In this document: piece after piece, positions 8,542-51,372 of the stretch | How the letters are laid out: each line of letters begins with the position of its first letter | Numbering within the stretch: the stretch's first letter is position 1 | The notes under the pieces: generated by a model | Databases searched by the model: none | What the model was told of the DNA's origin: nothing | Seen by the model: the letters and a program-made list of their open reading frames with translations, nothing else | Program-made: the position numbers and the translations under genes | DNA from: Thermoplasmatota archaeon | GTDB taxonomy: Archaea > Thermoplasmatota > Thermoplasmata > UBA10834 | Reading direction: 5' to 3' | NCBI GenBank assembly: GCA_040751795.1 | Contig: JBFMHR010000001.1 | Location: forward strand, 1-64,000 | DNA: 64,000 bases

Positions 8542-8546
8542 CCCGG

Positions 8547-11867: not shown

Positions 11868-11869
11868 CC

Positions 11870-15566: not shown

Positions 15567-15652
15567 TAGTACCGCTCCGCTCGAACCACGGAGAAGCTAT
15601 TAAATCCTTTCTTCCGGTTCCTTGGACAGTCAATCCAGGGAGTCGGAGCCCA

Positions 15653-16609: not shown

Positions 16610-16649
16610 TATTGCTCAGTCGGCTTACCTGTCAAGTGGCGGGTCCGAG

Positions 16650-17717: not shown

Positions 17718-17724
17718 GTGGGCC

Positions 17725-18720
17725 ATGAAGCGAGTGTGCGTCCTGCCCGGGGATGGGATCGGGCCCGAGGTCGTCGGGTGCGCCACAAGGGTGCTCGAAG
17801 CCGTCGCCCCAGGAATCGAGCTGGTCAGCGGCGAGATCGGGCAGTCCGCCATGGATGTCCATGGGTCCCCCCTTCCTGCCCGGACGTTGGACCTGATACG
17901 CGGGTGCGACAGCTGCCTCTTCGGCGCGGTCACCTCCCCCAGCGCGGCGAGCCACCCATCGCCAGTGCTGACGTTCAGGAAGGAGCTGGACCTCTTCGCC
18001 AACCTCCGCCCCGTCAGGAACCTAGTCAGCGTGCAGGGCAGGCCGCCCATCGACGTCGTAATCGTGCGGGAGAACTCCGAGGGGCTCTACCACCAGCCCG
18101 AGGTGGAGGACGCGGAGGGCGTGACCACTCACCGGCGCGTGACGGCGCGCGCATCAAGGCGGATAGTCGACTTCGCCATCGGGCATGCCCGCTCCAGGGG
18201 GAGGCGGGGGGTCTGCTGCGTGCACAAGGCCAACGTCCTGAGGAGGTCCGACGGGCTCTTCCTCGATGTCTTCAGGGAGCGGATGCGCGATGCCGGCGCT
18301 GGACTCATGGCCAGGGACCAGCTCGTCGACTCGGCCGCGCTGCTCCTCGTCACCGACCCCTCGTACTTCGACGTGATCGTCACGCTCAACCTCTACGGCG
18401 ACATCCTGTCGGACCTCGCCGCGGGTGTCGCAGGAGGCCTGGGCTTCGCACCCTCTGGCAACATAGGGCCGAGGCACTCGGTCTTCGAGCCCGCCCACGG
18501 GTCCGCCCCCGACATCGCGGGGAAGGGCGTCGCCAACCCGACCGCGGCGATCCTCTCCGCGTCGATGATGCTCGAGCACATCGGGATGGGGAGGGAGGCC
18601 GCGGAGGTCTCCCAGGCGGTCATCGGGGCATATGCCGACGGCGCCCTCACCGTCGACGTGGGCGGGGCGCTCGGTTCCGCCGCGTTCACGGAGCTAGTGC
18701 TCTCGCGACTGCGCCGCTGA
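17725..18720 (+). CDS. Isocitrate/isopropylmalate dehydrogenase family
   Basis: [42 protein letters not shown]. Confidence 0.92.
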
Positions 18721-35493: not shown

Positions 35494-35815
35494 GCCAGGA
35501 GAAGGCGGATGGCCGACGGTAGGCCCGTTCTCAGAACGGGCCGGCTGAGGAAAGTCCCCTCTCCAAGAGAAGGTGGGCCGCCAGAGCGGCAGGGCGAGAG
35601 TCCTGGCAAGGGCACAGAAACGGCACAGCCTCGGGATAACGTGATGATTCCCCTGGGGATGAAGTCTCCCGAGGACATGGTGAAACGGCGACACCCCACC
35701 GGAGCAAGCTCAAACGGCCGAACGATCTCTCATCGACGGCGGGTAGAGTGCAATAGTCGGATGCCATCACCGTCGCAAGACGGGAACAGAAAGGGGCTTA
35801 TGTCCTTCACCTGGC
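35494..35815 (+). ncRNA. rnpB: Archaeal RNase P RNA
   Basis: GAGGAAAGTCC (CR-I), ACAGAAA, GTGAAACGG, GGAGCAAG, AACAGAAAGGGGCTTAT (CR-V); P1 GCCAGG..GAAGG / CCTTC..CCTGGC. Confidence 0.95.
35790..35815 (+). repeat. Left att direct repeat AAAGGGGCTTATGTCCTTCACCTGGC
   Basis: Identical 26 bp at 47070-47095; forms the 3' end of rnpB. Confidence 0.93.
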
Positions 35816-35955
35816 TCTTATACCTTTATAAAGGGTATATGACAGAATGCACTTTCTGTCTCTCCCCGCATGGTCCTCCAGGGATTGCTCCGGCAATGGG
35901 AGGTCATACCCACCACAACAAAGTTTTACATGGCTTCTGAAGCATTTCCAAGTGG

Positions 35956-36588
35956 ATGCCGGGCAATCATGGAGAGATAAAGGCGGAGTTTCCGATATTC
36001 GCAGCCATGGATAAGGAAACCACCATGCTGAACCTATTCAGATTCGAAATGCGGAAGACTCGTCTGCAGTTCAAGAGAGTGAGCGATGACCTTGATGAAA
36101 GGAAAGCGACTTCAGGTTCAGCATTGACCAGAGAGGAAAATGCCAACAGTCAGGCGAAGCTCTTCGCTGACATTCACTTTCTACTAACATGTCTGAGTCG
36201 GCTCGGATCACTCTTCTACAGGATGAAAGGCTACTTTCCTGAGAACTCCAAACTGAGCGAAGTCGAGACTCGTGTCCGAAAGCGTCTTGATTTCTTCGGT
36301 GAAATCAGGAATGACTTGGAGCATGTGGAGGACAGGCCAGGCAAAGGAGTCAACATCCTTGGTAGCACCTTTGGCTCTGTCTTTCAATTCGATGACAAGC
36401 AGATAGATGTCGGCAGTCATCTCAGAGATGAGATCGAGACTTTCTTCACTGAAGTGGAATCGATATATGACCGAATATTAGTCGAGAGACGGAAATCGTT
36501 GGGACAGAAAACCGTACTGTATAGAACAGGCATAACAATACCCGGGAGCCCAGAAAATCCTCATTCATTCGATGAGACAAAGAATTAA
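35956..36588 (+). CDS. Hypothetical protein with HEPN-like Rx4H motif
   Basis: IRNDLEH in a helical protein. Confidence 0.6.
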   Translation: MPGNHGEIKAEFPIFAAMDKETTMLNLFRFEMRKTRLQFKRVSDDLDERKATSGSALTREENANSQAKLFADIHFLLTCLSRLGSLFYRMKGYFPENSKLSEVETRVRKRLDFFGEIRNDLEHVEDRPGKGVNILGSTFGSVFQFDDKQIDVGSHLRDEIETFFTEVESIYDRILVERRKSLGQKTVLYRTGITIPGSPENPHSFDETKN

Positions 36589-36631
36589 GGCGTCATCGCC
36601 CCGATGGATGAGTAGCGTCTGATTTTCAGGC

Positions 36632-37384
36632 CTATCTGCTTCTGGAGATGATGCCTCTCTTCTCTAATTCATCCAGATACTCATCCATTCCAGGCAAGTG
36701 TCCCAACGCCTCTGCCCAATCAAGGACAGACTTCGAATTGAGCTCCAATATCATGTCCCCCGGTGTGAGGAATAGGACCCTTTCAGGATCTGTCATGAAT
36801 CCCAATTCGAGAAGGTCCGCTCTCACCTCATCTTCGTACACCCAATGGAGATCATCTTCGATTCTCCGTATCTTGCCGAGCTGTTGGCCTATCTCATGAA
36901 TATCGAGACCTGCATAGTATGGGCTGTTATCGTTCAGCATTCTCACAATGAGATCTCGCAGAGGCCCATTCTGGAAGACCCGTATCTTCTGATGCTTGGG
37001 AGAACGATATGCCCGTCTCATTGCATCTCTAAGCCATCTTACTGCCGAGTCAAATTCCTTCTTTCCTGCATTAGGCGACAGTAGCGGGCATGGAGCATCC
37101 GGTGTCGAGAATATCATCAGACAGAGGTTCATGGCTTCCTCCTTTGACATTCTTCTCAGAGGTTTGTGATGATTGGGGCCTCGTACCTTCTCATAAGTGA
37201 TATGTGGTGCGAATCCTTCGTCATCACTGACAATACTCAAGTGGATGCCAATCGTGCCATCCGTTGATTCATCTCCCAGGGCCTTTACGAACGACTCCAC
37301 ATCGCTACACCACCGGAAAAGTATCCTGAATCGGATCAAGCCGTTGTCCTGAATCAGCACCTTGCGGAGTCGCTTCTTGGACAC
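36632..37384 (-). CDS. Hypothetical protein
   Basis: 250-aa ORF in the lower-GC region; no motif recognised. Confidence 0.65.
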   Translation of the reverse strand: MSKKRLRKVLIQDNGLIRFRILFRWCSDVESFVKALGDESTDGTIGIHLSIVSDDEGFAPHITYEKVRGPNHHKPLRRMSKEEAMNLCLMIFSTPDAPCPLLSPNAGKKEFDSAVRWLRDAMRRAYRSPKHQKIRVFQNGPLRDLIVRMLNDNSPYYAGLDIHEIGQQLGKIRRIEDDLHWVYEDEVRADLLELGFMTDPERVLFLTPGDMILELNSKSVLDWAEALGHLPGMDEYLDELEKRGIISRSR

Positions 37385-37492
37385 CGAATCTCATCTCCGA
37401 ATCATGGCATTATACCTCGGCCCATGGTTTCACTCTTCCCTCATGGCAAGCATGTGAATCCGAAACGAAACCTCAGTGACAATGGGAGCCAT

Positions 37493-37651
37493 TCAGACAT
37501 GCCGCTTCTTCTCTTTGGAATCTGGAGCGTCTTTCTCAGAGGCGCCAAGTTGTACGGTAGTTGTCCCCACCTGCACTCCAGCTTTATCCCAGTCCCCAAG
37601 GTCCGGCTTATCCCGTCTTCTGCTCTTGTCTTCTCGCTTCTTCTCTGTCAT
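37493..37651 (-). CDS. Micro-peptide 2 (DxxDWD..VGTxT motif)
   Basis: MTEKKREDKSRRRDKPDLGDWDKAGVQVGTTTVQLG...; GGGAG SD upstream. Confidence 0.6.
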   Translation of the reverse strand: MTEKKREDKSRRRDKPDLGDWDKAGVQVGTTTVQLGASEKDAPDSKEKKRHV

Positions 37652-37690
37652 GCGAGCACAACTCCCTTCAGTCACCATCCGAGTTCAGAC

Positions 37691-37822
37691 TCATTTGTCT
37701 GTCTTCTCCTTCTTGTGCTCCTTCTTGATGCTCTCAAGCGTGATTGTCCCCACATCCTTGCTGTCCCAATCTCTCATGTCTCGTTTCTGGCCTCTCCTCT
37801 TATTCTGATCCTCCTCACCCAT
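37691..37822 (-). CDS. Micro-peptide 1 (DxxDWD..VGTxT motif), 43 aa
   Basis: Manual translation MGEEDQNKRRGQKRDMRDWDSKDVGTITLESIKKEHKKEKTDK; starts 4 nt after the upstream stop. Confidence 0.6.
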   Translation of the reverse strand: MGEEDQNKRRGQKRDMRDWDSKDVGTITLESIKKEHKKEKTDK

Positions 37823-37826
37823 TCAA

Positions 37827-39029
37827 TCATCCCCATATCCTGTCCAGATTCCATACCACAACTAGCACTAATCCAATGAGAAAGGCAATGAACATGCCCT
37901 TGGCAAACCAAGCCTTGAAGACATTCTGACGATGATTATGCAAGAAGGAGTCATAGAGTTTCCTCGATATGATCATCTCATAATCCCTTGGTTCCCCTTT
38001 GCGATAGATGTCAATAATCTCCCCTATGTCAGCTCCACCTTTGAACTCCCTCACGAAGAATGCAATTACACCGAGAAAGGCAGCGACAAGAAGTGAGATC
38101 ACCCCGAGAATTCCGAAGTGTCCAACATAGCTACCCGAATCTAGATCCGCAACAGGTTCTGTCAGGGATACGATAAGGCCGAGGGACACAAAAACAAATC
38201 CCAGCATGACGCCTGTCTTGGAATCCAGTGACTCACAGTTCCGACTCTCCTGGTCAAACTGCCTCTGTATTTCGCCTGTGATAATCGAAAAGTCGTTCTT
38301 GCTGGCAGCACTGTTAGACTCGTCCATACCCTTGACCTCCTGATGTGATGAGCCGCAATCAGCAATGGGCATCTGCTCAACGGAACCCTCCTCCCGATTT
38401 CTAGGAGAATCTAGACCCAATGTACTGACAAGAGAGCTCTTGAATTTCCCAGATAGATTCATTTGGCGCCAGAAAAGGAAGTAGTACACCGCTAGAGTTG
38501 TGATTGCCGCAATCACTATGATTACTCCCCTTACACTCGCATCAACATCTATGGATCCGATTGCGATACCGAGCACAATCACCCACATGAAGTAGAATCC
38601 GGAGATGAGAATGTGAAGCACTATGCTGCTGGGAATTCCTTTGACTTGAGGACGAAAAGCTGAGTCCCCTTCCTGCCAGACTGCACACTCCTCCCGCATA
38701 GTGACCGCTCTCTGAAGCCACAGTGCTCTGTGAATCCACTCTATCTCATATCTCTGTGCTCTAAGGATTATCAAGAACCAGGCAGTTGAGATGAACATGC
38801 CTAGAACAGATAGCGCCATGATTATCATTGCCCACTCGGGGTGGTTTAGTGCACTCACGGCTGCCACGATCAAGACACCATTTGTAGCTGAATGGAGTGC
38901 ATTCGTGGACCAAGTCGTTGAGTCTTGACCTCTCTCCATAGCGTTCAATTGAGATAGTTGGTCCATCCCAAATCTGCCTGTGCCACTAGTCTTATCATGT
39001 ATCTTCTCCACAGCAGGAGCCCCTGGCAT
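37827..39029 (-). CDS. Two-domain membrane protein; C-terminal domain resembles Pycsar TM effectors
   Basis: N-domain with ~4 TM; C-domain LDSKTGVMLG...3 TM...NVFKAWF; in-frame internal ATG at 38327 with AGGAGGT SD. Confidence 0.65.
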   Translation of the reverse strand: MPGAPAVEKIHDKTSGTGRFGMDQLSQLNAMERGQDSTTWSTNALHSATNGVLIVAAVSALNHPEWAMIIMALSVLGMFISTAWFLIILRAQRYEIEWIHRALWLQRAVTMREECAVWQEGDSAFRPQVKGIPSSIVLHILISGFYFMWVIVLGIAIGSIDVDASVRGVIIVIAAITTLAVYYFLFWRQMNLSGKFKSSLVSTLGLDSPRNREEGSVEQMPIADCGSSHQEVKGMDESNSAASKNDFSIITGEIQRQFDQESRNCESLDSKTGVMLGFVFVSLGLIVSLTEPVADLDSGSYVGHFGILGVISLLVAAFLGVIAFFVREFKGGADIGEIIDIYRKGEPRDYEMIISRKLYDSFLHNHRQNVFKAWFAKGMFIAFLIGLVLVVVWNLDRIWG

Positions 39030-39033
39030 CAGG

Positions 39034-39783
39034 TCAGCCTCCTCCGGCAAATCTAACGCTAAATGCTTCACAGATCGCCTTCACGAATGAATGATAGTGC
39101 AACGGGCTCCCCAGCTGGGGGGCTGGTGGCTCACTCACCAGCTTAGCCGAATGTCCCTTCACATTGTCGTAGTCAACGACAATGACTCCGACTGCGTCGA
39201 TCTCATTAGGTTTGCTAGGCGATGGGCCAGTCTTCGAGGCTCTAGGCAAATCCTCAAACAGCTTCACTGTCTCTGTGACTAGTCGTTCAATGTTTGCATG
39301 CATTGTTGTCTCTCCAGCTCTAAGAGGCGACATGAAGCTTGCAGACATGTTCACGACAACGAGCCCACCAACAATCGTCCGTGGATTTGACATGTGGAGG
39401 ATACTTGAGAAGGAATTCAGGTCCCTCTGTCTATTCCTTCTCGCTTTTCCGTGTTCCGTCATGATTGTCTTCGCATCTACTGCCACCCACAACTCATCGG
39501 GAGGAGCACAGATTGACTCCCCCTCGCCGCCAGGCACCCTTTGCGCATCTCGGGAAGTGGGTCCGATGGCAAGGTCAATGTTCCAGCCTAATGGCACCCC
39601 CAACCCAGGCGGTTGGTTCTGGTTATAGCAGATTCTCCCCTTTGCAGCCATTTCTGCAAAAGCAGGGCATGAAGCCATCATATCCTCCAAGAGGAGCTCG
39701 CAGAGTCGGTCGCCATGCTTCGATGATCTTGGGTGATAACCGTTTGACTCCAGATACCGCACGAATTCTCTGTCCGCCTTCAA
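39034..39783 (-). CDS. Putative Type II restriction endonuclease (PD-(D/E)xK)
   Basis: IDLAIG...VAVDAK motif; directly downstream of a DNA methyltransferase. Confidence 0.68.
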   Translation of the reverse strand: MKADREFVRYLESNGYHPRSSKHGDRLCELLLEDMMASCPAFAEMAAKGRICYNQNQPPGLGVPLGWNIDLAIGPTSRDAQRVPGGEGESICAPPDELWVAVDAKTIMTEHGKARRNRQRDLNSFSSILHMSNPRTIVGGLVVVNMSASFMSPLRAGETTMHANIERLVTETVKLFEDLPRASKTGPSPSKPNEIDAVGVIVVDYDNVKGHSAKLVSEPPAPQLGSPLHYHSFVKAICEAFSVRFAGGG

Positions 39784-39847
39784 CTCCAGACCACTCTGCG
39801 GATGTAAGGCCTAGGTAGTATGTTAATTTTCGGCAGAGAAGGATGTC

Positions 39848-40912
39848 CTATTTCTTGGTGATGGATAGCCTGCGGTTCATCTGCAGGGTGCCTATTTCAT
39901 TCCTGATGCGCTTCTCGGCCAGTCGAAGATAGTCGCTGTCAATCTCGAAGCCTACGCTATTCCTGCCAGTCTTCATTGCCGCGAGATTGGTTGTCCCTGT
40001 CCCCGTGAACGGATCGAGGACGGTGTCTCCCGCGAAACTGAACATGCGTATGAGCCTCAGAGGTATCTCAAGAGGAAACGGAGCCGGGTGTTTTGCAGTG
40101 CTCTCCCCCGGAACATCCGCCCATATCTGCTGGAACCAAACTCTATGTTTGTCAGCAGGGACTATGCTCAGCAATCGAGTCTTGGTATCAGGCTTGCGAT
40201 ACGATCCCGGCTTCCTCTCCATAAGTATGAATTCAACATCATTCTTCACCACACCCCCGGGCTCGTAGGGCTTACCGAGGAAGCCTGCCCCATTCCCTTC
40301 AGCCTCGAAGGCTGCATTCGCAATCTTGTACCAGAATATCGGAGCTAGATTGTCAAAACCTAGCTTCCTGCAGTGGCCTTGAATGTCGGCATGCAGTGGG
40401 AAAACTTGGTGTCGCCCATGCTTCCTGCGGCTCAGGCAGACGTCGCCGACGACAATAATCAACCTCCCGCCTTCCACGAGGACTCTGTGGCATTCTGCCC
40501 ACACCTTGTCGAGTTCCTTCAAGAAGTCCTCGTAATCGGTAACATAGCCAAGTTGTCCCTCGGTTATGTTGTACTTCTTCAGAGTCCAGTATGGGGGGGA
40601 GGTTACTACTAGGTGTACAGACTCATCCTCTACGCCTTTCAGATTCCTAGCATCGCCTTGAATAAGCCTATGTTCGGTCGGCAGACTAGCTATCTCCTCT
40701 TCAACGGCGGACAGGAAGGCAGAATCCTTACTCGCCTTAGGTATGAACATATCTGCCTGCCTGGGAGTCATGCTAGATGGCAGATTGAAAGACTTGGACA
40801 GTTCGTCCACAGACATTTCGATGGACCAATTGCCAGAGCACGTACTTGAACTGTTCGCAGAGGTCTCCGGAAATGCTCCTTTGCCTAGTAATAGCCCGGA
40901 GTCATGCGCCAT
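39848..40912 (-). CDS. Site-specific DNA methyltransferase, beta class (SPPY, probably N4-C)
   Basis: VTSPPYW, HPAPFP, VLDPFTGTGTT. Confidence 0.93.
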   Translation of the reverse strand: MAHDSGLLLGKGAFPETSANSSSTCSGNWSIEMSVDELSKSFNLPSSMTPRQADMFIPKASKDSAFLSAVEEEIASLPTEHRLIQGDARNLKGVEDESVHLVVTSPPYWTLKKYNITEGQLGYVTDYEDFLKELDKVWAECHRVLVEGGRLIIVVGDVCLSRRKHGRHQVFPLHADIQGHCRKLGFDNLAPIFWYKIANAAFEAEGNGAGFLGKPYEPGGVVKNDVEFILMERKPGSYRKPDTKTRLLSIVPADKHRVWFQQIWADVPGESTAKHPAPFPLEIPLRLIRMFSFAGDTVLDPFTGTGTTNLAAMKTGRNSVGFEIDSDYLRLAEKRIRNEIGTLQMNRRLSITKK

Positions 40913-42039
40913 GACGTGCTACCCTCCTTCATAGAACGGTGTTCGACAAGGGAGACGAGCCTTTCGAGCTTCTCATCAGAAATCTCCCCATTAAGGTACT
41001 TCAGGAGGATCATATCTCTGATGCGGTCTGATCTCTCAGGCCCCTCATCTATCGACTCGGCACCGAATCCTGCGTCCTCCTCGGGCAGGGCTCTCTGAGA
41101 CACGCTTGCGGACTCACCACCAAATGCCCTGTCATACGCTTGTCTCCTGCTCTTTTCACTCAAATGCGTGTATCTCTGCACATCGTCCAGACTCTTATGC
41201 CTTGACTGAGCCTGAATGAAGGATGCAGACAGCCCGCTCTCGGCCATATGTGTGATCATGCTGTGCCTGAAGATGTGGGGATGGACGTTCTTCTCGATTC
41301 CTGCTCGAAATGCCGTCTTCTTCACCATCATCCAGAGATTCCTCCTTGTCATTGGCCTCCTGCCCTCTGTGAGGAATACATAGTCTTCGTACCCGCTCTC
41401 TGGCGCTGGCCTACCCGCTTTAAGGTATCTTGCTACGGCTTGGACGGCCTCATCTGAGAGATTGACGAAGGAGTAATCCTTCCCCTTTCCCGCATGTACT
41501 CTGAGGCGCTTCTTGTCGAGATCAAGATTGGCGACCCTCACGCCGATGGCTTCACTAGCCCTTAGCCCACCATAGTACATCAAGCAGATGAGGGCATAAT
41601 CTCTCAACGAGGTGTCTCTCTCGGCCTGGAACCCATTCTCCCCGATCTTCGACCTCTTCGCTTCGTCAAGCACCCGCCTGACTTCTTCCTCTGTCAGAGG
41701 AACCTTCTCCTTCTCAACCTGCTTCGGGAGTTTCATCCTAAGGTCATGGCGCTCGATAACCTGCGATGTATAGCAGTTTACGGCTGCAAGCATGCTACAC
41801 ATGGTATTCTCACAGTATTTCTCTGCCAGGTGAGCCTTCCATGCCTGCATGTCGGCCTTCTGAAGCTCTAGAACGGGCTTTCCGATGAATTCTAGGCACA
41901 ATCTCAGACTCCGAGTGTACGAGGTCGCAGTAGCCTCTGTACGCTTCTCTGCCCTCAGAAATGCCTCGAATCGTTCAACCTGCTCCTGAACCTGCTGCTC
42001 AGTGTTCACACACCCTAGAGACTGCTCTCTCGTACTCAA
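40885..42039 (-). CDS. Tyrosine recombinase/integrase
   Basis: GLRASE (R), GKGK (K), HPHIFRHS (HxxR), RHKSLDDVQRYTH (H, Y). Confidence 0.95.
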   Translation of the reverse strand: MSTREQSLGCVNTEQQVQEQVERFEAFLRAEKRTEATATSYTRSLRLCLEFIGKPVLELQKADMQAWKAHLAEKYCENTMCSMLAAVNCYTSQVIERHDLRMKLPKQVEKEKVPLTEEEVRRVLDEAKRSKIGENGFQAERDTSLRDYALICLMYYGGLRASEAIGVRVANLDLDKKRLRVHAGKGKDYSFVNLSDEAVQAVARYLKAGRPAPESGYEDYVFLTEGRRPMTRRNLWMMVKKTAFRAGIEKNVHPHIFRHSMITHMAESGLSASFIQAQSRHKSLDDVQRYTHLSEKSRRQAYDRAFGGESASVSQRALPEEDAGFGAESIDEGPERSDRIRDMILLKYLNGEISDEKLERLVSLVEHRSMKEGSTSWRMTPGYY

Positions 42040-42141
42040 GCTGCTTCACCGAGCCTGAGAATGCAGTCCCTGACAATAAAGGTTTTCGAGGCAGGCAGGC
42101 AAAGCTCCCAAAAGCCCTTTGGTGAAGCAGCTATTGAGTAC
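42032..42141 (-). promoter_or_regulatory. Inverted repeat covering the integrase SD/start and enclosing a BRE-TATA promoter
   Basis: GTACTCAAGCTGCTTCACC (42032-42050) vs GGTGAAGCAGCTATTGAGTAC (42121-42141); minus-strand CGAAAACCTTTATTG at 42088-42074. Confidence 0.65.
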
Positions 42142-42202
42142 AATACCTGCCTGCTATCCCGACGAGGCACCAAAGAGGAACAGGGTTGATATATGTTCCG
42201 AA

Positions 42203-42466
42203 TCAGGTGTCATCGCCCCCCTTCCCCTGGAACTTGCCCTCGATAGCCATTCGGACATGCCTTGCAGACAATCGGGCTTTACGCCTCTCCCCCAATTGAG
42301 CTCTAAGGAAGTTCTCCCTATCATGGATCGAAGACGCTCTGACAGCGATGGAGATTGCCTCATTCTCGAGGTGAGATTTGAGAGTTTCAACGGCCGCGCG
42401 CTCAATCTTCCGTTCTGGAGCCTTCTGTCCCAAGAGCATCCGGACGGACCGGAGGGAGATGGTCAT
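42203..42466 (-). CDS. Putative histone-fold protein
   Basis: ISLRSVRMLL / ERKIERAAVETLKSHLENEAISIAVRA / RKARLSARHVRMAI fit the alpha1-L1-alpha2-L2-alpha3 pattern. Confidence 0.62.
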   Translation of the reverse strand: MTISLRSVRMLLGQKAPERKIERAAVETLKSHLENEAISIAVRASSIHDRENFLRAQLGERRKARLSARHVRMAIEGKFQGKGGDDT

Positions 42467-42753
42467 GAGCCCTCCTGCTGTTCAGCATCCAGTTGCGACT
42501 CCCGATTCTCGATCTTTGGGAGGAACCTCTCAAACTCCTTCCCTTTGCGCCACCGCCACTGCGTCTGTTCGTTTATCAACCCTCGAACCCGGGAAAGCCT
42601 GTAGTATGAATCTGCGGTTCGCCGATCAATGCCCAACCCCGCATCAACAACCACCTCTTGCCAGTCATTTCGACCATAGTAACGACTGTCATCACAGCAG
42701 AGGTGGATTGTCTTCGCAAGGGCCTCCAGTTTCTTGGCTTCATTTTTGACCAT
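42463..42753 (-). CDS. Small winged-helix-like protein
   Basis: GIDRRTADSYYRLSRVRGLI helix-wing pattern; ATGA overlap with the next gene. Confidence 0.55.
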   Translation of the reverse strand: MVKNEAKKLEALAKTIHLCCDDSRYYGRNDWQEVVVDAGLGIDRRTADSYYRLSRVRGLINEQTQWRWRKGKEFERFLPKIENRESQLDAEQQEGS

Positions 42754-42776
42754 AGGCCACCCCCGCCGCATGCTTA

Positions 42777-42902
42777 TGTGTGTGTGAGTGTGCAACTAAG
42801 AGAGAAGGACCTCTCTCAAGACAATACATATTATACGACATCACAGATAGAAATCTGTTCAGAGAAGGGATTCTCTCTAGGGCGTGCACACACTCACACA
42901 CA
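42777..42902. repeat. Long imperfect palindrome with AT-rich core
   Basis: TGTGTGTGAGTGTGCA...AGAGAGAA / TTCTCTCT...TGCACACACTCACACACA. Confidence 0.7.
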
Positions 42903-42982
42903 ATCCTGATAACACCCCTAGGAGCCCTTCCATTGTCTCCGATCCTGACTTCCTTCGAGTACATCCCATCCCTCCTAGTGTA

Positions 42983-43354
42983 TCACTTCGTCGTCTTGAC
43001 CTCCCGAAACAATCTCGCTGGGAGCTGGTCAATTGGGTCAACCGTTATGCTAGGAAACTCAGAAATCACCGACTCCCTGCTTATCAATGGCTCATGTTGC
43101 TCCTTATACCAGCAACTCTCGCAGAGTCCTCGGTGGGCAAGGGCAATCAATTGGGAAGGTCCTCTTTGGCCTGATGGGAGTCTTGGGGTCTTGTCAGTAC
43201 CTGCTAATGTAAACCCCGCTCGTTCTCTCGCCAGAAGCTCAAGAACCACAAATCTGAGGAGACCTGATAGACTCTCATACCCTCGAGAGGCCTGTATTTG
43301 CCCGAGCGCTGCTGCATCTTCATCGTCTAGTCTGAAAGAGATAGACCTACTCAC
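42983..43354 (-). CDS. Ribbon-helix-helix protein
   Basis: SISFRLDDEDAAALGQI...SLSGLLRFVV; C-terminal CxxC. Confidence 0.72.
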   Translation of the reverse strand: MSRSISFRLDDEDAAALGQIQASRGYESLSGLLRFVVLELLARERAGFTLAGTDKTPRLPSGQRGPSQLIALAHRGLCESCWYKEQHEPLISRESVISEFPSITVDPIDQLPARLFREVKTTK

Positions 43355-43849
43355 CTGACTCCTTCCTGCCCTCAGCTCTACCCAGAGTCCTTCAGAGCCG
43401 CAGCAGGTTCAAGGAGGTTCAACATCGGAGGAGAGAATTCCGATAGACTCTAGGTTATCTGCCAAATCGACTACCGAGATTAAGGTCTTTTCGCTACCGG
43501 GGTTCTGCCGAGGATCTTCAAGACTCTGTATTGAAGAGTCTGTATTACGCGTGCATTCAAGCACGTATACGGAAATCTGCCGACAAATGCTCTTGCCGAC
43601 AATCGAAAAGGCCAGGATTATCGGCGGCGGACAGGGGATACCTTCAAAACCCTATGAAGAGAGAGAGAAGAGAGAGACATAGTCTCTCTCCACGAGCGTG
43701 CGAGGGCTGCCGAGGATTGACTTCCGACTTTCAGCTGGCAGTCGGAAGCAATCACGGTGATTCCGCCTGTCCATGGGCGAGACCTCATTCAAGCCAAATC
43801 ACGGGAAACAGAAAGAGAGATATGCGAAGACATCTGTACTCGGCAATGG

Positions 43850-44413
43850 ATGGAATCTGGGGGACCTGCGCCGAATCAGGACGATTGGCGCGAGTATCAG
43901 GCTCTTGAGGCGAGAATCCAGAATGATTCTAGGGTAGCATATGCGATTCTGGCAGCTTCATTGACTTCATCGTTAGCCTTAGCAGGTCTGCTACTGGTCT
44001 ATATCGATCCTGGGCAAGACCTAATCAGATTTCTGATCATCGCAGCCCTTGCACTCTTCATACTTAAATTCGGCACGGTGATTCAGAATCGATTCAACGA
44101 CACAGCAAGTATCAGAATCGCCAGGGCAGTGCAGCTGGAACGGAATCTGAGAATACACAGTTTCAGATCTTTTCCGCCCTGGTACGAATTTCCCGGAGGC
44201 GACTACTTCAAGATTCTTGGAGAATACGCCAGTAATTCCCGATCCGATGGCACTCCATCCTCTGATGCGTATTTCACATATTTGGGCCAAAGAGAATACG
44301 AACGTATAATCCGCGGATTGCGAATCCGTATTTACGTCTCATGGTTCGGATATGCAGTGATCTTAGCTCTGATTGCATCCGGAATTATTCTTGCTCTGGT
44401 GAACACTCAGTAG
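43850..44413 (+). CDS. Membrane protein (~3 TM), possible pore-type effector
   Basis: Two N-terminal TMs, then IARAVQLERNL, then a C-terminal TM. Confidence 0.62.
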   Translation: MESGGPAPNQDDWREYQALEARIQNDSRVAYAILAASLTSSLALAGLLLVYIDPGQDLIRFLIIAALALFILKFGTVIQNRFNDTASIRIARAVQLERNLRIHSFRSFPPWYEFPGGDYFKILGEYASNSRSDGTPSSDAYFTYLGQREYERIIRGLRIRIYVSWFGYAVILALIASGIILALVNTQ

Positions 44414-44526
44414 CAGTGACAAGAGAACCCGGCTGCGGAAACATGATAGGGATTAGTCGATGAAGGCTATAGGGGTAGAGGAAAGCCCTTAAGCCATCGC
44501 AAATGATTTGGATATTGGGAAAGGAA

Positions 44527-45051
44527 ATGGCAGATAAGTTCTTGGTTTTCGTCAGCCACTCCGCCAAAGATAAGCATCAACTCGAATTGATAAGAGGCGC
44601 AATCAGAGGGACTGGTGCGCGACCATATGTTGCCGAGGAGAATGTGACGCCAGGTGCGAAACTGTCAACAAAGATACGCAACAAGATTGAAGAATGTGAT
44701 GTATTCCTGCTAATCCTTACGGAGAACAGTGCAGCATCTGCCTATGTAAATCAAGAGATTGGATACGCGCTCGGCCTTGAGAAATTCGTGCTGCCTATAG
44801 TGATCGGGGATACTTGTCCCCAGAACCTCTGCTCCGATATTGAGTACATACGAATCGATCCGGAACGCCCTTCTTCATCTATTCGCACTGTCCGAGCAAT
44901 CATAAAAGCCAAGAAGAACGAAACTGAACTTGAGCAACTTGTCAAGATTGGCGCCCTCACCCTAGGGACCATAGCTTGGCTCAAGTACGGCCCTCAGATT
45001 AAGGAAACCGCATCTAGGTGGTGGCAGAATTTGAACAGACCATTACCATGA
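44527..45051 (+). CDS. TIR domain protein with hydrophobic C-terminal segment
   Basis: VFVSHSAKD, IEECDVFLLILT, SAYVNQEIGYA (catalytic E). Confidence 0.88.
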   Translation: MADKFLVFVSHSAKDKHQLELIRGAIRGTGARPYVAEENVTPGAKLSTKIRNKIEECDVFLLILTENSAASAYVNQEIGYALGLEKFVLPIVIGDTCPQNLCSDIEYIRIDPERPSSSIRTVRAIIKAKKNETELEQLVKIGALTLGTIAWLKYGPQIKETASRWWQNLNRPLP

Positions 45052-45116
45052 GAAGAAGCGATAGTGGCGAAGGGAAGCTCTTAAATCGTGCCTGGGGATT
45101 TCATAGGGTGATAGAC

Positions 45117-46292
45117 ATGAATGATTCCTCGACCCAAATGCTCATTCCTCTTCTCGCTGGAGGTGAAGATACCCTAGTCGAATTCAAATCTTTCCTTCCC
45201 AAGAACGAAGAAACTAAGCACAAAGTGGCCGAGGCCGCAACCGAGCTTGCCAACGCTGCAGCTCTTTGCGGGCATCCTAAGGCATTCCTGCTTCTCGGAG
45301 TCACAGATGATGGCAAGGTCGTTGGAGTGAAATGCCAAGAACGATACAAGAAGGAATTCAGAGAACTGATATCTGCCAAGTCTAATCCCCATGTGAGGGT
45401 TCTAGAGATTCATGAGATTGGAACCACGAGTCTATCGACCGACATCAAGTCTGAACCATGCGGCGAAGCAGTGTACGTCCTGGAAATTGCGCCTGCCTTG
45501 GATGGACCGATTCGATACTATAGGTCTAAAGATTCCAACGGAGTTCTATTGACAAGGGATGGCCCTCGAAAGCGGGACATGACCAACGAGGAATTGCGGC
45601 GGCTGTCCAGCGGGCCTGCCAGAACTCCGAAACTTTCACTCAGACTTCTGAACGATGAGGAACATGAAGTTGAATGCCTGGTCTTGAGACCGAAATTCTT
45701 GGTGAAGAAGAAGACCGAAGAGCCAAAGCCATACACTCCCACTCCTCAGCAGACAGCCTGGCTTGAGCAACTGAAGCGGCAGCCAAACATGCAACAGGTG
45801 ATGATACAGCAGGCATTGAGCACAAAAAGACTACTTGAGATGACAGAAACATGGAAGCCGTTTCTGACACAGGTTGAGAGAATCCCAGCTCCGAACACAT
45901 TTCCCACTCACTTCGCATTGTCGAATACCGGATCTGCACCAGCCGAGGATGTAAGGGTCACGATGAAGTTTCCTGAATGTTTTATGATTGAGGAGAAATC
46001 GGAGTATGAGCCACAGTCATATGGCATCCTTGCACATGTTCCATCAGTCACACCACCATTCAGCGGCGTATGGAAGAAAGACAGAGATGATCGGAATTGT
46101 GTGACTGCTGGCATTCGTGTCCAGAAACTAAGTAATGATGTCACAATTACTAGATTCGACCCAATTTTCGTGACTGTACCCAATGCCGAGAGAGAATACA
46201 GCATCGAAATCCGGATCACTGCCGACTATCAAGAACCTGTGCACCAGACTCTCACAATGATTATCAAGCCAATCATCGAAGAAGTCTCATAG
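45117..46292 (+). CDS. Schlafen/AlbA_2 domain protein with Ig-like C-terminus
   Basis: GEDTLVEFKS...LAN...LLLGVTDDGKVVG; C-terminal LSNTGSAPAEDVRVTMKFP. Confidence 0.8.
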   Translation: MNDSSTQMLIPLLAGGEDTLVEFKSFLPKNEETKHKVAEAATELANAAALCGHPKAFLLLGVTDDGKVVGVKCQERYKKEFRELISAKSNPHVRVLEIHEIGTTSLSTDIKSEPCGEAVYVLEIAPALDGPIRYYRSKDSNGVLLTRDGPRKRDMTNEELRRLSSGPARTPKLSLRLLNDEEHEVECLVLRPKFLVKKKTEEPKPYTPTPQQTAWLEQLKRQPNMQQVMIQQALSTKRLLEMTETWKPFLTQVERIPAPNTFPTHFALSNTGSAPAEDVRVTMKFPECFMIEEKSEYEPQSYGILAHVPSVTPPFSGVWKKDRDDRNCVTAGIRVQKLSNDVTITRFDPIFVTVPNAEREYSIEIRITADYQEPVHQTLTMIIKPIIEEVS

Positions 46293-46308
46293 GGGCGGAA
46301 GGGCATCC

Positions 46309-46992
46309 ATGAAAAGGATGAATGGACTTACAAGAAGGACGACAATCAACTACATTGAGATCGAGGTCTTGAGTGAGCGGCTATTTGACGAGGATACTCT
46401 CAAATCCTTTGCCCGTATTGCAGCTCAAATTGCCTCGAATGCAGGGACTGAAGAGGGGCGGCCGAGCAGTCGGTTCTGCATCGAATCCGTCAGAGAACCC
46501 ATCGCATTGATTGATGACATCATTGGAGGAGTCGGCATCAACCAGCTACTTGTTCCAACCGCTGATACCTACACGGGCCACTACCCAGTGAACGAAAGGC
46601 AGATTCACAGACCACTCCAGTATGCCCTCGTTGACCTGCTCACGAGCATCAGGTCGAGAGATACAATCCGGTATGGTTGCCAACACATCGAGGGCATCTT
46701 GAAGACCATGTTTGAGAATGAAATCCACGGAATTCATCGCAAACCTCTAGGACAAATCGTCAAAGACCTGAAGAAAAGGAGCATCCTGGGGAATGATCTT
46801 ATTCAACAACTTGAGAACCTCGTCACTATCATGAACATTGCCAAGCATGAACATGGCAATGATGCCATTAGAATACCAGACCCATTGCGCACAGTAGAAT
46901 CTCAAGTCTTCAACACCCACGAAGCAATCTCAATGTACTTCATATGCAGGAAGCTCGGAGTACTACTCCTAGCTGAATCTAGCACACCGTAA
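46309..46992 (+). CDS. HEPN/DUF4145-like protein with degenerate motif
   Basis: HIEGILK...PLGQIVKDL...MNIAKH. Confidence 0.55.
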   Translation: MKRMNGLTRRTTINYIEIEVLSERLFDEDTLKSFARIAAQIASNAGTEEGRPSSRFCIESVREPIALIDDIIGGVGINQLLVPTADTYTGHYPVNERQIHRPLQYALVDLLTSIRSRDTIRYGCQHIEGILKTMFENEIHGIHRKPLGQIVKDLKKRSILGNDLIQQLENLVTIMNIAKHEHGNDAIRIPDPLRTVESQVFNTHEAISMYFICRKLGVLLLAESSTP

Positions 46993-47069
46993 CGCTGATT
47001 TGCATCATTGAACGCAGAATATCAGCGTCTGCATGTATGTGCTCGATATGATCCAGACTGCAGGGTTTC

Positions 47070-47095
47070 AAAGGGGCTTATGTCCTTCACCTGGC
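47070..47095 (+). repeat. Right att direct repeat (copy of the rnpB 3' end)
   Basis: AAAGGGGCTTATGTCCTTCACCTGGC identical to 35790-35815. Confidence 0.93.
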
Positions 47096-47241
47096 ACTTG
47101 CGCCCAGTGGAACCGGGGCAACACATACAGCTCTACGTTCCCAGCCCGTTACTCCGCGTTCCTCGTCATTCTTGACGGAGTATCACCCTGTCCGCCGAAA
47201 GGCTATTGAAGGACGCACTCATCCTAACATCGGTGTCTGCA

Positions 47242-47595
47242 ATGGGTGAAGATGTGCTTATCGTGCTGAACGATGCGCCTTACGGAACGGAGAAGGCCTA
47301 CAACGGACTGCGACTGGCCATAGCCTTGCAGGCGAGACAAAGCAACGTCCGGCTGTTCCTCATGGCGGACGCCGTCTCCGCAGGCATCCCGAACCAGGAG
47401 ACCCCGCCGGGGTACTACAACGTCAGCGAGATGCTCGGAAGGGTCCTCGCGAAGGGCGGGAAGGTGGCGGCCTGCGGGAGCTGCATGAAGGCGAGGGGGC
47501 TCAGGGTGGAAGGGCTCATCAAGGGCATCGAGCAGGGCTCGATGGCCCTGCTCTGCGAATGGACGCAGGAGTGCGGTAAGATCCACTCCTTCTGA
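47242..47595 (+). CDS. DsrE/YchN family protein
   Basis: NDAPYGTEKAYNGLRLA, FLMADAV, ACGSCMKARG. Confidence 0.88.
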   Translation: MGEDVLIVLNDAPYGTEKAYNGLRLAIALQARQSNVRLFLMADAVSAGIPNQETPPGYYNVSEMLGRVLAKGGKVAACGSCMKARGLRVEGLIKGIEQGSMALLCEWTQECGKIHSF

Positions 47596-47739
47596 CAGGC
47601 GGATACAGACTCGTTCCGGATCCATGTCGCCCGCGAGGTCCCTGCGATTCCGGAAGCATGGTGACACTCCCTCTGCTCATGGTCGAACCACGGAAAAGGC
47701 TTAATGAGGCCCCGCCTTTACAAGAGCAGGTGGTAGGAA

Positions 47740-50700
47740 ATGGGTCGGATGACTGAGCTGGCTGCGCCACGGGAAGTCAGGGGCTCTGAGGCGATCATGG
47801 TAGCCCGCAATTACGACCGGAGGACCAGGGAATCACTCTCGCGGGCATCGACACTGCGCCGGATGCCGCCGCCCCGACTCGCTGCGGCCGTCGCCGCGGC
47901 CTTTGTATCCGTTGCCCTCGCGACCATGGGCCTCTTGGCCTGCGTTGTCCCTTCGAGCCCGGATGCCCCCGCTGGAATAGCGGCCATATCGAACGAGACG
48001 CTGGACGGCGAGAACGATGCGGGGCAGTTCACATCCATTGCCATCGGCGATGATGATGACGTGCACATCAGCTACATCTATGAGACCACGGCCGATCTCA
48101 GATACGCGACCAACGACGGAGGTGCGTGGAGCACTGAGACGGTCGATTCGGTCACCGACGCTTCCGGCTACACTTCGATGGCGATCGACTCTGAAGGCAA
48201 GGTCCACATCGCCTACTTCGACTTCACCAACATGCTGTTGATGTACGCAACGGACACGGGGGGCTCCTGGACAACCGACATGGTCGACGGCAGCGGCGAC
48301 GTCTCCGGATTCATCTCCCTAGCTGTCGACCTCAACGACAAGGTGCACATCAGCTACTACGACTCCGCCGATGACGACCTCATGTACGCCACGAACGCAG
48401 GCGGCTCCTGGGACATCAGTGCGATTGACAGCGGCGACAACGTCGGAGGCCACAGCTCGATAACCGTCGACTCCCATGGCGGCATACACATAAGCTACTG
48501 TGACTACACGGACACCGCCCTCAAGTATGCCACCAATGCGACCGGGTCGTGGACCACAAGCACGATTGACAGCGAAGGGACCGTCGGGTACTTCACATCC
48601 ATCGCTGTCGATTCGTCCGATCACGTCCACATAAGCTACCATGACGACACGAACGGTGCCGTCAAGTATGCCACGAACTCGGGGGGTTCATGGGCATGCG
48701 AGGCGGTCGACGGCGAATCGGGGATTGGCGACATCACATCCATCTCGATCGACGCTGAAGACCATGTGCACATCAGCTACTGCGACCGGATCGACGTGGA
48801 CCTCATGTACGCCACCAACGCATACGGCACCTGGTCCATTCAGACGGTCGACAGCACAGGTGATGTCGGAAGCTACTCATCCATAGCGGTCAACTCCACG
48901 GGCGTGGCCCACATCAGCTATTACGATTCGACGAACCACGACCTCAAGTACGCCACGGTCGCCCCATGCGTCATCCATGGCTGGGTGAACGACTCGGAGA
49001 CGATGCAGGGGATCGAGGGCGCCCAGGTCATGGCGTTCCTGACAGACTTCGAGTTCTCTCCATATCTCGACCCCATAATGGCGCAGACCACGGCAAACGA
49101 GACCGGATACTACGAACTGACCCTGCCCGGCGGCGCCACTGCGCTCATGTGCGGAGCCTCCGGACACTATAGTTACACCGTTGAGTTCAACACGACGGAG
49201 CTGACCGAATACCGGCTCGACATCATTCTGGACCCCGAGCCCACTGTGCCGACCGCGGACATGAGCCTGGACCCGGTCTCTGACGTGTCGTCCCACAACC
49301 CGCTCACGGTCAGTGTGGAGTGCGAGGACTTCAACATCTATATGGTCTTCATCTACATCGGCAGGATCCAAGAGCTGTCTGGTGACTACGTCGACTTCCA
49401 TCCCGTCGCTGGCGCTGCGGCGGTGCCCATGTGGGATACTGGCACGGACGACTTCCTCTATACCTACGAGAACGACGTCTTCGAGGGGACATACACGTGG
49501 ACGGCGAGCGCGGAGGCAGGCTATCTGACGAACGACACCGCATCGGAGTATATCGACATATGGTCGCACAGGTCCATCGATGGCGTCGAATCCTACGGTA
49601 TCGCGGGATACTACTCGAACGAGACGCTCGAGGGGGAGGTCGGCAGGGCATGGTTCGACCTCCTGACGGGGGAGTACCTCGGCTTCGAGTTCGGGGAGTC
49701 ACTGCTCCACGAGCCCTCCACCCTGCCACCCGCCCCCGCCGACGACCACACGGGCATGCTCACCCCGTTCTCATTGACCTACAGGATAGCCACGGACTGG
49801 ATGGGGACGGGAAACCCCCCGCCGGCGGACTTCCTCAGCTACGAAGAACAGCTCTTCGAGGAGAGACCCACCATGGGGCTCACGCTCCGGATGACCTACA
49901 TCGCCCCGAGCGGGGACTACGTCGCGCTCATGATAGTCATGGACGAGGCCGCCAACTACAACGGCTCCGTGGAGCTCTTCTCCGTCGACACGGATGCGCC
50001 CTCGGCGGACTGCGGGTCCGACCGGACGGTCTCATGCGGGGACGAGGTCACCCTGGACGGGAGCGCGTCATCCGATAATGTCGGCATAGCGTCCTATCAG
50101 TGGGACCTGGTCGATGGCGAGGCCGTGACGCTGACCGGCGCCGAGGCTGCGCACACCTTCGAGCTTCCGGGGACGTATGCGGTCACGCTCACCGTCTACG
50201 ACGGTGCGGGCAACAGCGGCACCGACACGATGACCGTGACCGTCGTTGACGATGAGGCCCCGGTCGCCGACGCGGGCGAGGCCCCGACGGACGTGGAGGC
50301 GGGCGAGACCGTCACATTCAACGCCTCGGGCTCCTCCGACAATGTCGGGATAGTCAACTTCACATGGGAGCTCACGGACGCCGCGGACGTCGTCCTGTAC
50401 GGGGAATCGGCGGACTACGCGTTCAGCGACGCCGGGGAGTTCCTCGTGACCCTCACGGTCAGGGACGCGGCGGGGAACAGCGACACCGACACGCTCACCG
50501 TCTCGGTGAGCGAGGCGCCTGTCAACGACCCGCCGGTGGCAGATGCCGGGGACGACGAGACCATCGGCCCCGGCTCCGTGTACACGTTCGACGGGACAGG
50601 CTCTTCGGCCGATGTCGTGAACCACACCTGGACATTCGCCTACGATGGGGAGGAGAGGGAGCTCTACGGGGAGACGCCGTCATGGACGTTCGACATCGCC

Positions 50701-50904
50701 GGAGAGTACACGGTGACGCTCACCGTGACGGACGACCTCGGGGCCACCGATGCCGACACCGTCCTGATCACGGTCGAGGAGGAAGGGTCCCAACTGGCCC
50801 TGCTCGTCGCTGCGGGGGCGGTCGCGGCCGTGGCGGCCGTCGGGGCGGCCCTCCTGCTCCTCAGGAAGCGCAAGGGTTCGGGCGGACCTCCGCCCCAGGG
50901 TTGA
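47740..50904 (+). CDS. Large acidic surface protein: 7-repeat beta-propeller, 3 PKD domains, C-terminal TM anchor
   Basis: Seven SIAxDxxxxVHISY repeats; APSADCG/APVADAG/PPVADAG PKD starts; TM followed by RKRK; start uncertain. Confidence 0.85.
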   Translation: MGRMTELAAPREVRGSEAIMVARNYDRRTRESLSRASTLRRMPPPRLAAAVAAAFVSVALATMGLLACVVPSSPDAPAGIAAISNETLDGENDAGQFTSIAIGDDDDVHISYIYETTADLRYATNDGGAWSTETVDSVTDASGYTSMAIDSEGKVHIAYFDFTNMLLMYATDTGGSWTTDMVDGSGDVSGFISLAVDLNDKVHISYYDSADDDLMYATNAGGSWDISAIDSGDNVGGHSSITVDSHGGIHISYCDYTDTALKYATNATGSWTTSTIDSEGTVGYFTSIAVDSSDHVHISYHDDTNGAVKYATNSGGSWACEAVDGESGIGDITSISIDAEDHVHISYCDRIDVDLMYATNAYGTWSIQTVDSTGDVGSYSSIAVNSTGVAHISYYDSTNHDLKYATVAPCVIHGWVNDSETMQGIEGAQVMAFLTDFEFSPYLDPIMAQTTANETGYYELTLPGGATALMCGASGHYSYTVEFNTTELTEYRLDIILDPEPTVPTADMSLDPVSDVSSHNPLTVSVECEDFNIYMVFIYIGRIQELSGDYVDFHPVAGAAAVPMWDTGTDDFLYTYENDVFEGTYTWTASAEAGYLTNDTASEYIDIWSHRSIDGVESYGIAGYYSNETLEGEVGRAWFDLLTGEYLGFEFGESLLHEPSTLPPAPADDHTGMLTPFSLTYRIATDWMGTGNPPPADFLSYEEQLFEERPTMGLTLRMTYIAPSGDYVALMIVMDEAANYNGSVELFSVDTDAPSADCGSDRTVSCGDEVTLDGSASSDNVGIASYQWDLVDGEAVTLTGAEAAHTFELPGTYAVTLTVYDGAGNSGTDTMTVTVVDDEAPVADAGEAPTDVEAGETVTFNASGSSDNVGIVNFTWELTDAADVVLYGESADYAFSDAGEFLVTLTVRDAAGNSDTDTLTVSVSEAPVNDPPVADAGDDETIGPGSVYTFDGTGSSADVVNHTWTFAYDGEERELYGETPSWTFDIAGEYTVTLTVTDDLGATDADTVLITVEEEGSQLALLVAAGAVAAVAAVGAALLLLRKRKGSGGPPPQG

Positions 50905-50955
50905 CCCGGACTCACCCGCGGATGACGGGAGCGGTGCATACATTGAACCGCCCGC

Positions 50956-51372
50956 ATGGCATCCCAGTCGCCAGACATGAAGCGCAGGGAACGACCCCGC
51001 GAGGCTGAAGGGGCCGAGTTCGTAGGATGCTGCGGCGCATACTGCAGGACCTGCCGGTCCTTCGTCCTGGGCGACTGCAAGGGCTGCAGGCTCGGCTACG
51101 ATGAGGGAGAGAGGGACATATCGAGGGCCAGGTGCAGGGTCAAGGTCTGCTGCATCAGGGACAAGGGGCTGGGGACCTGCGCCGACTGCCCGGAGTTCGA
51201 CCGGTGCGGCACCCTCGCGGCCTTCCACGGCAAGAAGTGGAAGGAGTACGGCAGGTACAGGGAATCGCTGGAGTTCATCCGCAGGGAGGGGTACCCTGCA
51301 TTCATCGAGACGAGCAAGGGGTGGGAGCGCGGCTACGGGGACCTCGGCCCTCCCCGTCGAAAGAGGGCGTAG
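50956..51372 (+). CDS. DUF3795-like Cys-rich protein
   Basis: CGAYCRTC...CKGC...CRVKVCC...TCADCPEF. Confidence 0.78.
   Translation: MASQSPDMKRRERPREAEGAEFVGCCGAYCRTCRSFVLGDCKGCRLGYDEGERDISRARCRVKVCCIRDKGLGTCADCPEFDRCGTLAAFHGKKWKEYGRYRESLEFIRREGYPAFIETSKGWERGYGDLGPPRRKRA

Follow-up and report, generated by a model that had tools for sequence, protein, structure and literature searches.

Tyrosine integrases target the 3' ends of tRNA genes and, in bacteria, those of tmRNA genes. In such elements the core of the attachment site is the 3' part of a gene for a stable structured RNA, an element-borne copy of that part rebuilds the gene upon integration, direct repeats bracket the resulting island, and the same site may be used again, with islands stacked in tandem. 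All of these traits recur in the system described here, whose locus lies in a stretch of 64,000 nucleotides (nt) from a Thermoplasmatota archaeon (UBA10834), hereafter the window (assembly GCA_040751795.1, contig JBFMHR010000001.1, positions 1-64,000, forward strand). The assembly is a metagenome-assembled draft of 2.05 Mb in 53 contigs; in what follows G numbers denote genomes and L numbers loci with which it was compared. Window positions 35816-47069 are read here, with a probability of about 0.88, as an integrated mobile element that entered rnpB, the gene for the RNase P RNA, through the site-specific recombination of a tyrosine integrase. The proposal of the initial annotation, that an archaeal element integrates into the essential rnpB gene, thus gains support from the repeats at the locus, from a link between integrase and rnpB that extends across the integrase family, and from the empty site and the alternative occupants found in congeners. 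The difference from the tRNA and tmRNA systems lies in the target, an RNase P RNA gene, and in a core that covers the conserved GGGGCUUA segment together with one strand of the terminal helix. We rate the mechanism as known, being of the tRNA/tmRNA type, and the target gene, the dedicated integrase clade and its partner protein as new.

Other archaeal systems are comparable in part. The SSV-type "suicidal" integrases are likewise archaeal tyrosine integrases that act on the 3' parts of RNA genes, but their attP lies within the integrase gene, which is split upon integration; here the integrase open reading frame (ORF) at 40885-42039 is whole and the cores lie outside it, beginning at 35790 and 47070. 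Small integrative plasmids of the pT26-2/pTN3 type and the cryptic elements of Thaumarchaeota (PMC6563490) share variable cargo on a minimal backbone, an integrase to which a replication helicase may be added; they differ in having no sequence relation to the present element past the general integrase fold, and the present element has a histone-fold partner and no replication gene. The accessible portion of a 2021 review of archaeal tyrosine recombinases treats tRNA targets at length and contains no mention of "RNase". A full-text literature search returned no report of rnpB as an attachment site, although subscription papers and supplementary island tables lay outside that search and could list cases, and the co-occurrences of "RNase P RNA gene" with integrase that it did return were taxonomy references only. 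As a regular, family-wide target an essential ribozyme gene extends the rule of integration into RNA genes, and indicates that integrases select the slowly evolving end of a structured RNA rather than tRNA itself. The 3' end of rnpB is worth adding to the tools used to find archaeal islands.

The repeated end of rnpB

The features that define the two ends of the element are as follows.

35497-35812, plus strand: rnpB, archaeal RNase P RNA, complete (Rfam RF00373, 182.4 bits, model positions 1-288)
35790-35815, plus strand: attL core, the final 23 nt of rnpB plus 3 nt; exact 26-nt direct repeat, followed by TCTT
35820-35838, no strand assigned: left-arm motif, near-palindromic, just within the element; it also adjoins both core copies of G048
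47059-47069, plus strand: right-arm motif TGCAGGGTTTC, directly adjoining the core and shared without change by the element of G005
47070-47095, plus strand: attR core, exact 26-nt direct repeat, followed by a native-type flank, ACTT

The last 26 nt of rnpB had been noted to recur exactly at 47070-47095, and the two copies of the 26-mer (AAAGGGGCTTATGTCCTTCACCTGGC) do match at 26/26 positions, with the refinement that 23 nt belong to rnpB and 3 nt lie beyond it; identity extends to 29/30, out to 35819 and 47099. The gene rnpB is single-copy in its own assembly, where a search allowing up to 3 mismatches finds the 26-mer only twice and its reversed-pattern control not at all. Across the window no third copy was found at up to 8 mismatches, a threshold at which 20 shuffles gave 0-2 matches. 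Chance is ruled far out as a source of the repeat, and the observation is real. In the Rfam alignment the repeat spans the unpaired GGGGCUUA segment, known in RNase P RNA as the 3' strand of pseudoknot P4, and the terminal helix, whose 3' strand it covers entirely, together with 3 nt past the end of the model. The rnpB gene next to the element appears in the same alignment to be reconstituted at full length, from model position 1 to 288, with no truncation. Between the two copies lie 11.25 kb of low-GC DNA, as had been noted (about 11.3 kb); its GC content is 0.47-0.54 (about 35.8 to 47.0 kb), that of the upstream sequence 0.65 and that of the downstream sequence about 0.61.

The flanks of the two copies tell which side belongs to the chromosome. 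The gene order CheA-CheC-CheD-rnpB is kept across the taxonomic family, and in all eight relatives with sequence past the core (8/8) the core is followed by AC. With TCTT after the left copy and the AC-type flank after the right one, the left junction reads chromosome-core-element and the right junction element-core-chromosome, which is the layout expected after integration. Recombination would have taken place between the attP of the element and an attB that consists of the end of rnpB (its final 23 nt) and the 3 nt beyond it; the element would bring its own 25-26-nt copy of the core, from which a full-length rnpB would be rebuilt at the left junction, and the displaced native tail of rnpB would be left as an orphan core at the right junction. 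The rnpB-side and distal cores differ by one base at two related loci, L177 and L178, and are alike at L175, which has the same rnpB. This mismatch, seen on two contigs, fits an rnpB tail supplied by the element.

The arms next to the cores recur elsewhere. The right-arm motif occupies the 11 nt ahead of the right core, and arms like it are found before other cores, in G007 and L178. By eye, the left arm (35816-35850) shares about 66% identity over 35 nt with the native downstream flank of rnpB in G004; the flank in G010 is 88.5% identical to that of G004 and 85% identical to the core plus arm of the window over 54 nt. Besides the core, the attP region may include part of an rnpB downstream flank. 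On one contig of G048 (C1) two exact cores (L084 and L085, at 1172106 and 1640925) lie 469 kb apart in opposite orientation, one being the end of rnpB and the other standing outside rnpB and followed by nearly the same left-arm motif as in the window, an arrangement that may reflect a large inversion or a secondary site.

Could the two junctions have been made during assembly or binning, by a chimeric joining of foreign DNA at a short shared sequence? The source is a draft metagenome assembly of 53 contigs, and many contigs of relatives break at this very site, ending at or beside the core in G001, G002, G003 (twice), G010, G011, G013 and G014. Both junctions of the window lie within one long contig, however, and the same architecture, core boundaries and arm motifs are found in independent assemblies of other samples and species, which leaves an artefact with next to no credibility. 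We take the contig breaks to reflect a repeat that varies within populations, which would account for the many Thermoplasmata draft assemblies that break at rnpB.

Empty sites and other occupants in related genomes

The comparison of three congeners is decisive for the integration of a sister element. In G005 the 26-mer occurs twice, 4.77 kb apart, around a low-GC element of 4.74 kb that holds the C-terminal half of an integrase 48% identical to that of the window. Whole-locus alignment shows G004 to be collinear with G005 on either side, with no insert and with the breakpoint at the core; G004 is the empty site, and in G006 another, different insert of 3.7 kb lies between two cores at the same place. 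All bracketed elements have a GC content of 0.48-0.55. The empty site that the initial annotation suggested looking for is therefore present for the sister element, but the particular form it named, rnpB joined directly to the DsrE gene that follows the window's element, is found in no relative. G007 is the only relative with an orthologue of that gene (87.5% amino-acid identity), where it stands directly after a core that is preceded by element-type sequence; this site is also occupied. In five congeners the DsrE matches reach only 29-36% identity and are located elsewhere. In G016 and G018, which belong to two other genera of the family, rnpB is followed directly by homologues of the window's 51-61 kb region.

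The interval itself is not stable syntenic DNA, the condition that had been named as counting against an element: the 11.25 kb are absent from 11/11 congeners, save for matches of about 140 nt and 76% identity in the integrase gene of two. Across the taxonomic family the core is present at up to 2 mismatches in 31/46 genomes and in two or more copies in 11/46, and the reversed-order control in 0/46.

The site can hold more than one segment. At L178 rnpB is followed by three further cores in a tandem array of one integrase-bearing element and two integrase-less segments. Positions 3884-18540 of this locus, following rnpB, comprise three parts that are each bounded by cores: a 7.4-kb element with the integrase, a 6-kb segment with an alpha/beta hydrolase and a DUF4760 gene, and a segment of 1.2 kb that holds a DMP19-like gene. 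A flank common to L175, L177 and L198 was considered as chromosomal sequence and rejected as such, the longer L178 showing it to be the start of another core-bounded segment. Metagenome contigs with a core near both ends were likewise considered as circular episomes and rejected, as their left ends are rnpB and their right ends differ, so that they represent integrated forms. On contig C13 of G011 (L037), which ends inside the core, rnpB is preceded not by CheD but by an inverted block homologous to the window's 52-64 kb region, a rearrangement whose breakpoint lies at rnpB.

The integrase family and its histone-fold partner

Two genes make up what would be the backbone of the element, a module that is conserved across the family of the integrase.

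40885-42039, minus strand: tyrosine integrase, ORF of 384 amino acids (aa; 374 aa in the database gene call), PF00589, E 3.9e-38
42203-42466, minus strand: 87-aa histone-fold protein, upstream of the integrase, assigned by its position in the family, by PF00808 matches in relatives, by an AlphaFold2 (AF2) model and by Foldseek

The integrase was described at the outset as intact with all catalytic motifs, and this is what the alignment shows. It scores 131.4 bits against PF00589 (cut-off 27.1), and the R, K, H-x-x-R, H and Y residues are all kept: among 48 homologue sequences R150, K175, H245, R248 and Y280 show no variation, and H271 is kept in at least 90%. A C-terminal extension of about 80 aa is conserved in the family and specific to it. 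The family is well delimited, with 87 clusters of homologues of about 360-385 aa, at 35-74% identity and E<=5.2e-57, then a gap, then Xer-like proteins at 1.8e-23. The best NCBIfam model is archaeal XerA (NF040815), a recombinase of chromosome resolution and the top-scoring curated model, with which the integrase shares the same two-domain layout; it differs in a score below the cut-off (163.6 bits against 220), in the C-terminal extension and in its setting in a low-GC island beside rnpB. Seven further tyrosine-recombinase matches exist in its own genome, one of them with a higher XerA score, so that the integrase is not the sole candidate for a housekeeping Xer.

Homologues of the integrase do lie next to rnpB, as the initial annotation had proposed to check. 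The seven best loci of a survey of representative genomes come from metagenome-assembled genomes of Thermoplasmata, Thermoplasmatales or Thermoplasmatota, one being labelled otherwise; in 5/7 of them rnpB lies 90-1700 bp from the 3' end of the integrase gene, in convergent orientation. Among loci from metagenomes the core (at most 1 mismatch) stands beside the integrase in 13/33, one of those 13 with a full rnpB. Overall, 18/40 family loci have rnpB or the core beside the integrase; for a single-copy gene in a genome of about 2 Mb we estimate a chance expectation of about 1%. Relative to the integrase gene the core varies in orientation, with at least two changes on the tree.

The association reaches deep into the integrase tree. 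In a deep sister clade (L097-L101) the rnpB ends of the hosts differ at 4-5 positions, and a host-specific 26-mer with unchanged boundaries occurs four times in L099 and three times in L100; the specificity for rnpB is therefore old and tracks the sequence of the host. A class-wide scan of 401 genomes at E<=1e-40 gave matches in 135/401, a figure rejected as a family count because most of these are XerA-like genes of about 285 aa; matches that reach the C-terminal extension are found in 8/401 genomes. Among the genomes scanned, G195 has rnpB 150 bp from the integrase and G028 has neither rnpB nor a tRNA gene within 1.5 kb. A distant member on contig C35 of G093 (L355; 203 bits, with the C-terminal extension present) is convergent with a tRNA gene rather than with rnpB, a hint of a past change of target from one kind of gene to the other.

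Homologues of the second gene of the module stand upstream of the integrase gene, on its strand, in 28/40 family loci; no other element gene is common to the family loci, save for one weak match. At E<=1, 19/27 members match PF00808 (CBFD_NFYB_HMF), the best at 2.6e-6, and the copy in L198 reaches 26.2 bits against a cut-off of 21.4. The AF2 model of the window's 87-aa protein has helices at 5-15, 23-58 and 68-76, in a short-long-short arrangement, with a predicted local distance difference test (pLDDT) score of 89.4, and the 50 Foldseek matches listed are all histone-fold chains (E 0.04-0.16), with template-modelling (TM) scores to the target of up to 0.85. Modelled as a homodimer the protein scores 0.79, against 0.11 for the best of three controls, with runs agreeing on at least 94% of contacts and a pLDDT of at least 83 for the partner; the mark used was reached by 20/30 proteins solved as pairs and by 1/23 solved as single chains. 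The predicted structures correspond to a histone fold with a handshake dimer. Since histone dimers have already been solved, the dimer model, which may reflect memorised structures, shows likeness and not binding. From its conserved position the protein could be a dimeric architectural factor that bends DNA, or a directionality factor, for the recombination, and its conserved pairing with the integrase makes it a candidate, open to test, for an accessory factor of archaeal recombination. More tentatively, and with the odds somewhat against so broad a claim, each integrase of the family may pair with a dedicated, element-encoded histone-fold dimer as a new accessory or directionality factor, and rnpB may be a lineage-wide docking port at which small plasmids and defence islands stack in tandem and are exchanged.

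Cargo, mobility and neighbouring sequence

The remainder of the element would be cargo: a type II restriction-modification pair, a TIR and Schlafen/AlbA_2 pair, and membrane and uncharacterised proteins. Sixteen ORFs were scanned against four libraries (Pfam, PHROGs, PADLOC and NCBIfam), and the genes apart from the backbone module are listed here with the first gene of the chromosomal flank.

35956-36588, plus strand: ORF of 210 aa, no match in the four libraries
36632-37384, minus strand: ORF of 250 aa, no match in the four libraries
37827-39071, minus strand: ORF of 414 aa, by eye a multi-pass membrane protein with hydrophobic stretches; weak match to PF24838 8xMP, E 1.3e-4, below the cut-off
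39034-39783, minus strand: 249-aa ORF, a probable restriction endonuclease (type II) that would pair with the methyltransferase; no Pfam match, leads from the ESM Atlas
39848-40912, minus strand: N6/N4 DNA methyltransferase, type II; PF01555, 2.1e-39; PADLOC MTase_II, 9.3e-65
42463-42795, minus strand: ORF of 110 aa, no match in the four libraries
42983-43354, minus strand: ORF of 123 aa, no family match; a single weak homologue in L205
43757-44413, plus strand: ORF of 218 aa with hydrophobic segments, no match in the four libraries
44503-45051, plus strand: TIR-domain protein, ThsB-like; PF13676, 1.1e-17; PADLOC ThsB, 2.4e-12
45018-46292, plus strand: Schlafen/AlbA_2-domain protein; PF04326, 1.6e-11; its start overlaps the end of the TIR gene
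46309-46992, plus strand: ORF of 227 aa, no match in the four libraries
47206-47595, plus strand: DsrE-family gene of the chromosomal flank, outside the element; PF02635, 8.8e-19; 87.5% orthologue in G007

The cargo probably serves mostly anti-virus defence or addiction functions. The 249-aa ORF lies directly downstream of the methyltransferase gene; in the ESM Atlas it falls in a cluster labelled "putative Restriction endonuclease" (0.94 by features) and resembles the XhoI/PaeR7I type by structure (TM 0.63), both of which are leads only. The likeness to known type II restriction-modification systems thus consists in a methyltransferase that matches the PADLOC model, the adjoining endonuclease being a lead. 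To Thoeris, as PADLOC defines it, the likeness is the ThsB-like TIR protein and the difference is that the TIR gene has a Schlafen/AlbA_2 partner instead of one of the ThsA type; no ThsA model matches among the 16 ORFs, so that the pair does not count as Thoeris in that scheme, and the Schlafen/AlbA_2 protein has no PADLOC match. Sequence searches of the PDB yielded nothing useful for the Schlafen protein, for the putative endonuclease or for two large proteins found in relatives. If the genes act as their matches suggest, the end of rnpB would be a hot spot for the entry of defence genes into these uncultured genomes.

Related elements carry more than the window copy does. Ahead of the histone-fold and integrase genes, relatives have D5_N/DUF5906 primase-helicases in 6 loci and large Walker-A proteins in 4, and a remnant of these putative replication genes was sought in the window and none was found. 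Because relatives carry primase-helicases or other P-loop proteins, two of them of 562 and 677 aa, and the window copy has none, the latter is best read, from its gene content, as a derivative, lacking replication genes and laden with defence cargo, of a family of small plasmid-like integrative elements that specialise on rnpB. The related element at L198 has a second, unrelated tyrosine integrase and, between the histone-fold gene and the integrase, a 304-aa protein that matches a PHROG annotated as DNA topoisomerase; the coordinates given for these extras are 2471-3433 and 6729-7643.

A provirus, or a satellite that needs a helper virus for its packaging and spread, would also be small, the uncharacterised ORFs could hide structural or hijacking genes, and D5-type primase-helicases such as those of the relatives occur in some satellites. 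PHROGs, however, returned for the 16 ORFs only the methyltransferase, the integrase and one weak TIR match, with no capsid, portal or terminase, and IMG/VR contains no copy of the core and no close relative of the integrase (the best is 33% identical over part of the protein). A viral origin is accordingly very improbable. The initial annotation had suggested a small non-autonomous or satellite-type element; the lack of a replication gene, in a family where relatives have primase-helicases, is compatible with the first of these terms, and the second finds no support.

Several observations weigh against an integrated mobile element as the account of this locus, or at least against one that still moves. 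Family matches are absent for 9/16 ORFs, and none is recognised as a gene for replication, a capsid, a terminase or conjugation (the first inspection of the sequence had concluded the same for replication, capsid and conjugation genes), which bears on how the element would pass from cell to cell. No attP junction of an excised circle was found in its own assembly, and the window's own DsrE flank has no empty counterpart among relatives, the site in G007 being occupied. The window's own 87-aa protein has no match to PF00808 at E<=1. In 22/40 integrase loci neither rnpB nor the core is present; 12 of these end within about 310 bp of the integrase and 10 have 500 bp-10 kb of sequence after it, most of the 22 being on short contigs. 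The integrase family is found in only 5/46 genomes of the taxonomic family, against the 11/46 with duplicated cores, so that many of the islands are integrase-less remnants. Finally, the integrase is central, as initially annotated, and not adjacent to an attachment site, at 5 kb from the rnpB-side repeat (attL); most relatives differ in having the end of the integrase 90-1700 bp from the core, and the central position arises because cargo sits between the integrase and that repeat. The window copy could be on its way to fixation.

Much of this would suit an island that was integrated by the same route but has since become fixed and immobile, a remnant that behaves like any strain-specific defence island and whose integrase module no longer excises. 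Such a course is favoured by the missing replication gene, by the cargo inserted between integrase and attL, by the many core-bounded segments of relatives that have no integrase and by the integrase of G005, cut down to its C-terminal half. The repeats of the window are still identical at 26/26 positions, however, the integrase ORF is full-length with all its catalytic residues, the partner gene is intact, and the absence of the element from 11/11 congeners points to a recent arrival, all of which make a fixed remnant unlikely, though it deserves some weight. For the integrated mobile element, the reading preferred here, we infer both the defence role of the cargo and present-day mobility.

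The sequence past the right repeat is distinct in its own way. Positions 47096-51000, 3.9 kb with a GC content of 0.59-0.61, hold the DsrE gene and a gene for a 1054-aa PKD-repeat protein, and are lineage-specific: the segment stands outside the syntenic block that follows rnpB in G016 and G018, and G007 has the DsrE gene and not the PKD gene. A repeat bounding this segment was sought in the window at up to 8 mismatches and none was found; the segment may be an older, eroded insertion. Inside the PKD-repeat gene, at 48346-48834, four 66-nt direct repeats with a spacing of 141 nt and 70-76% identity are probably domain repeats. Far upstream, at 2864-2950, a tRNA match of 87 nt to a model of 71 positions suggests a tRNA gene that contains an intron.

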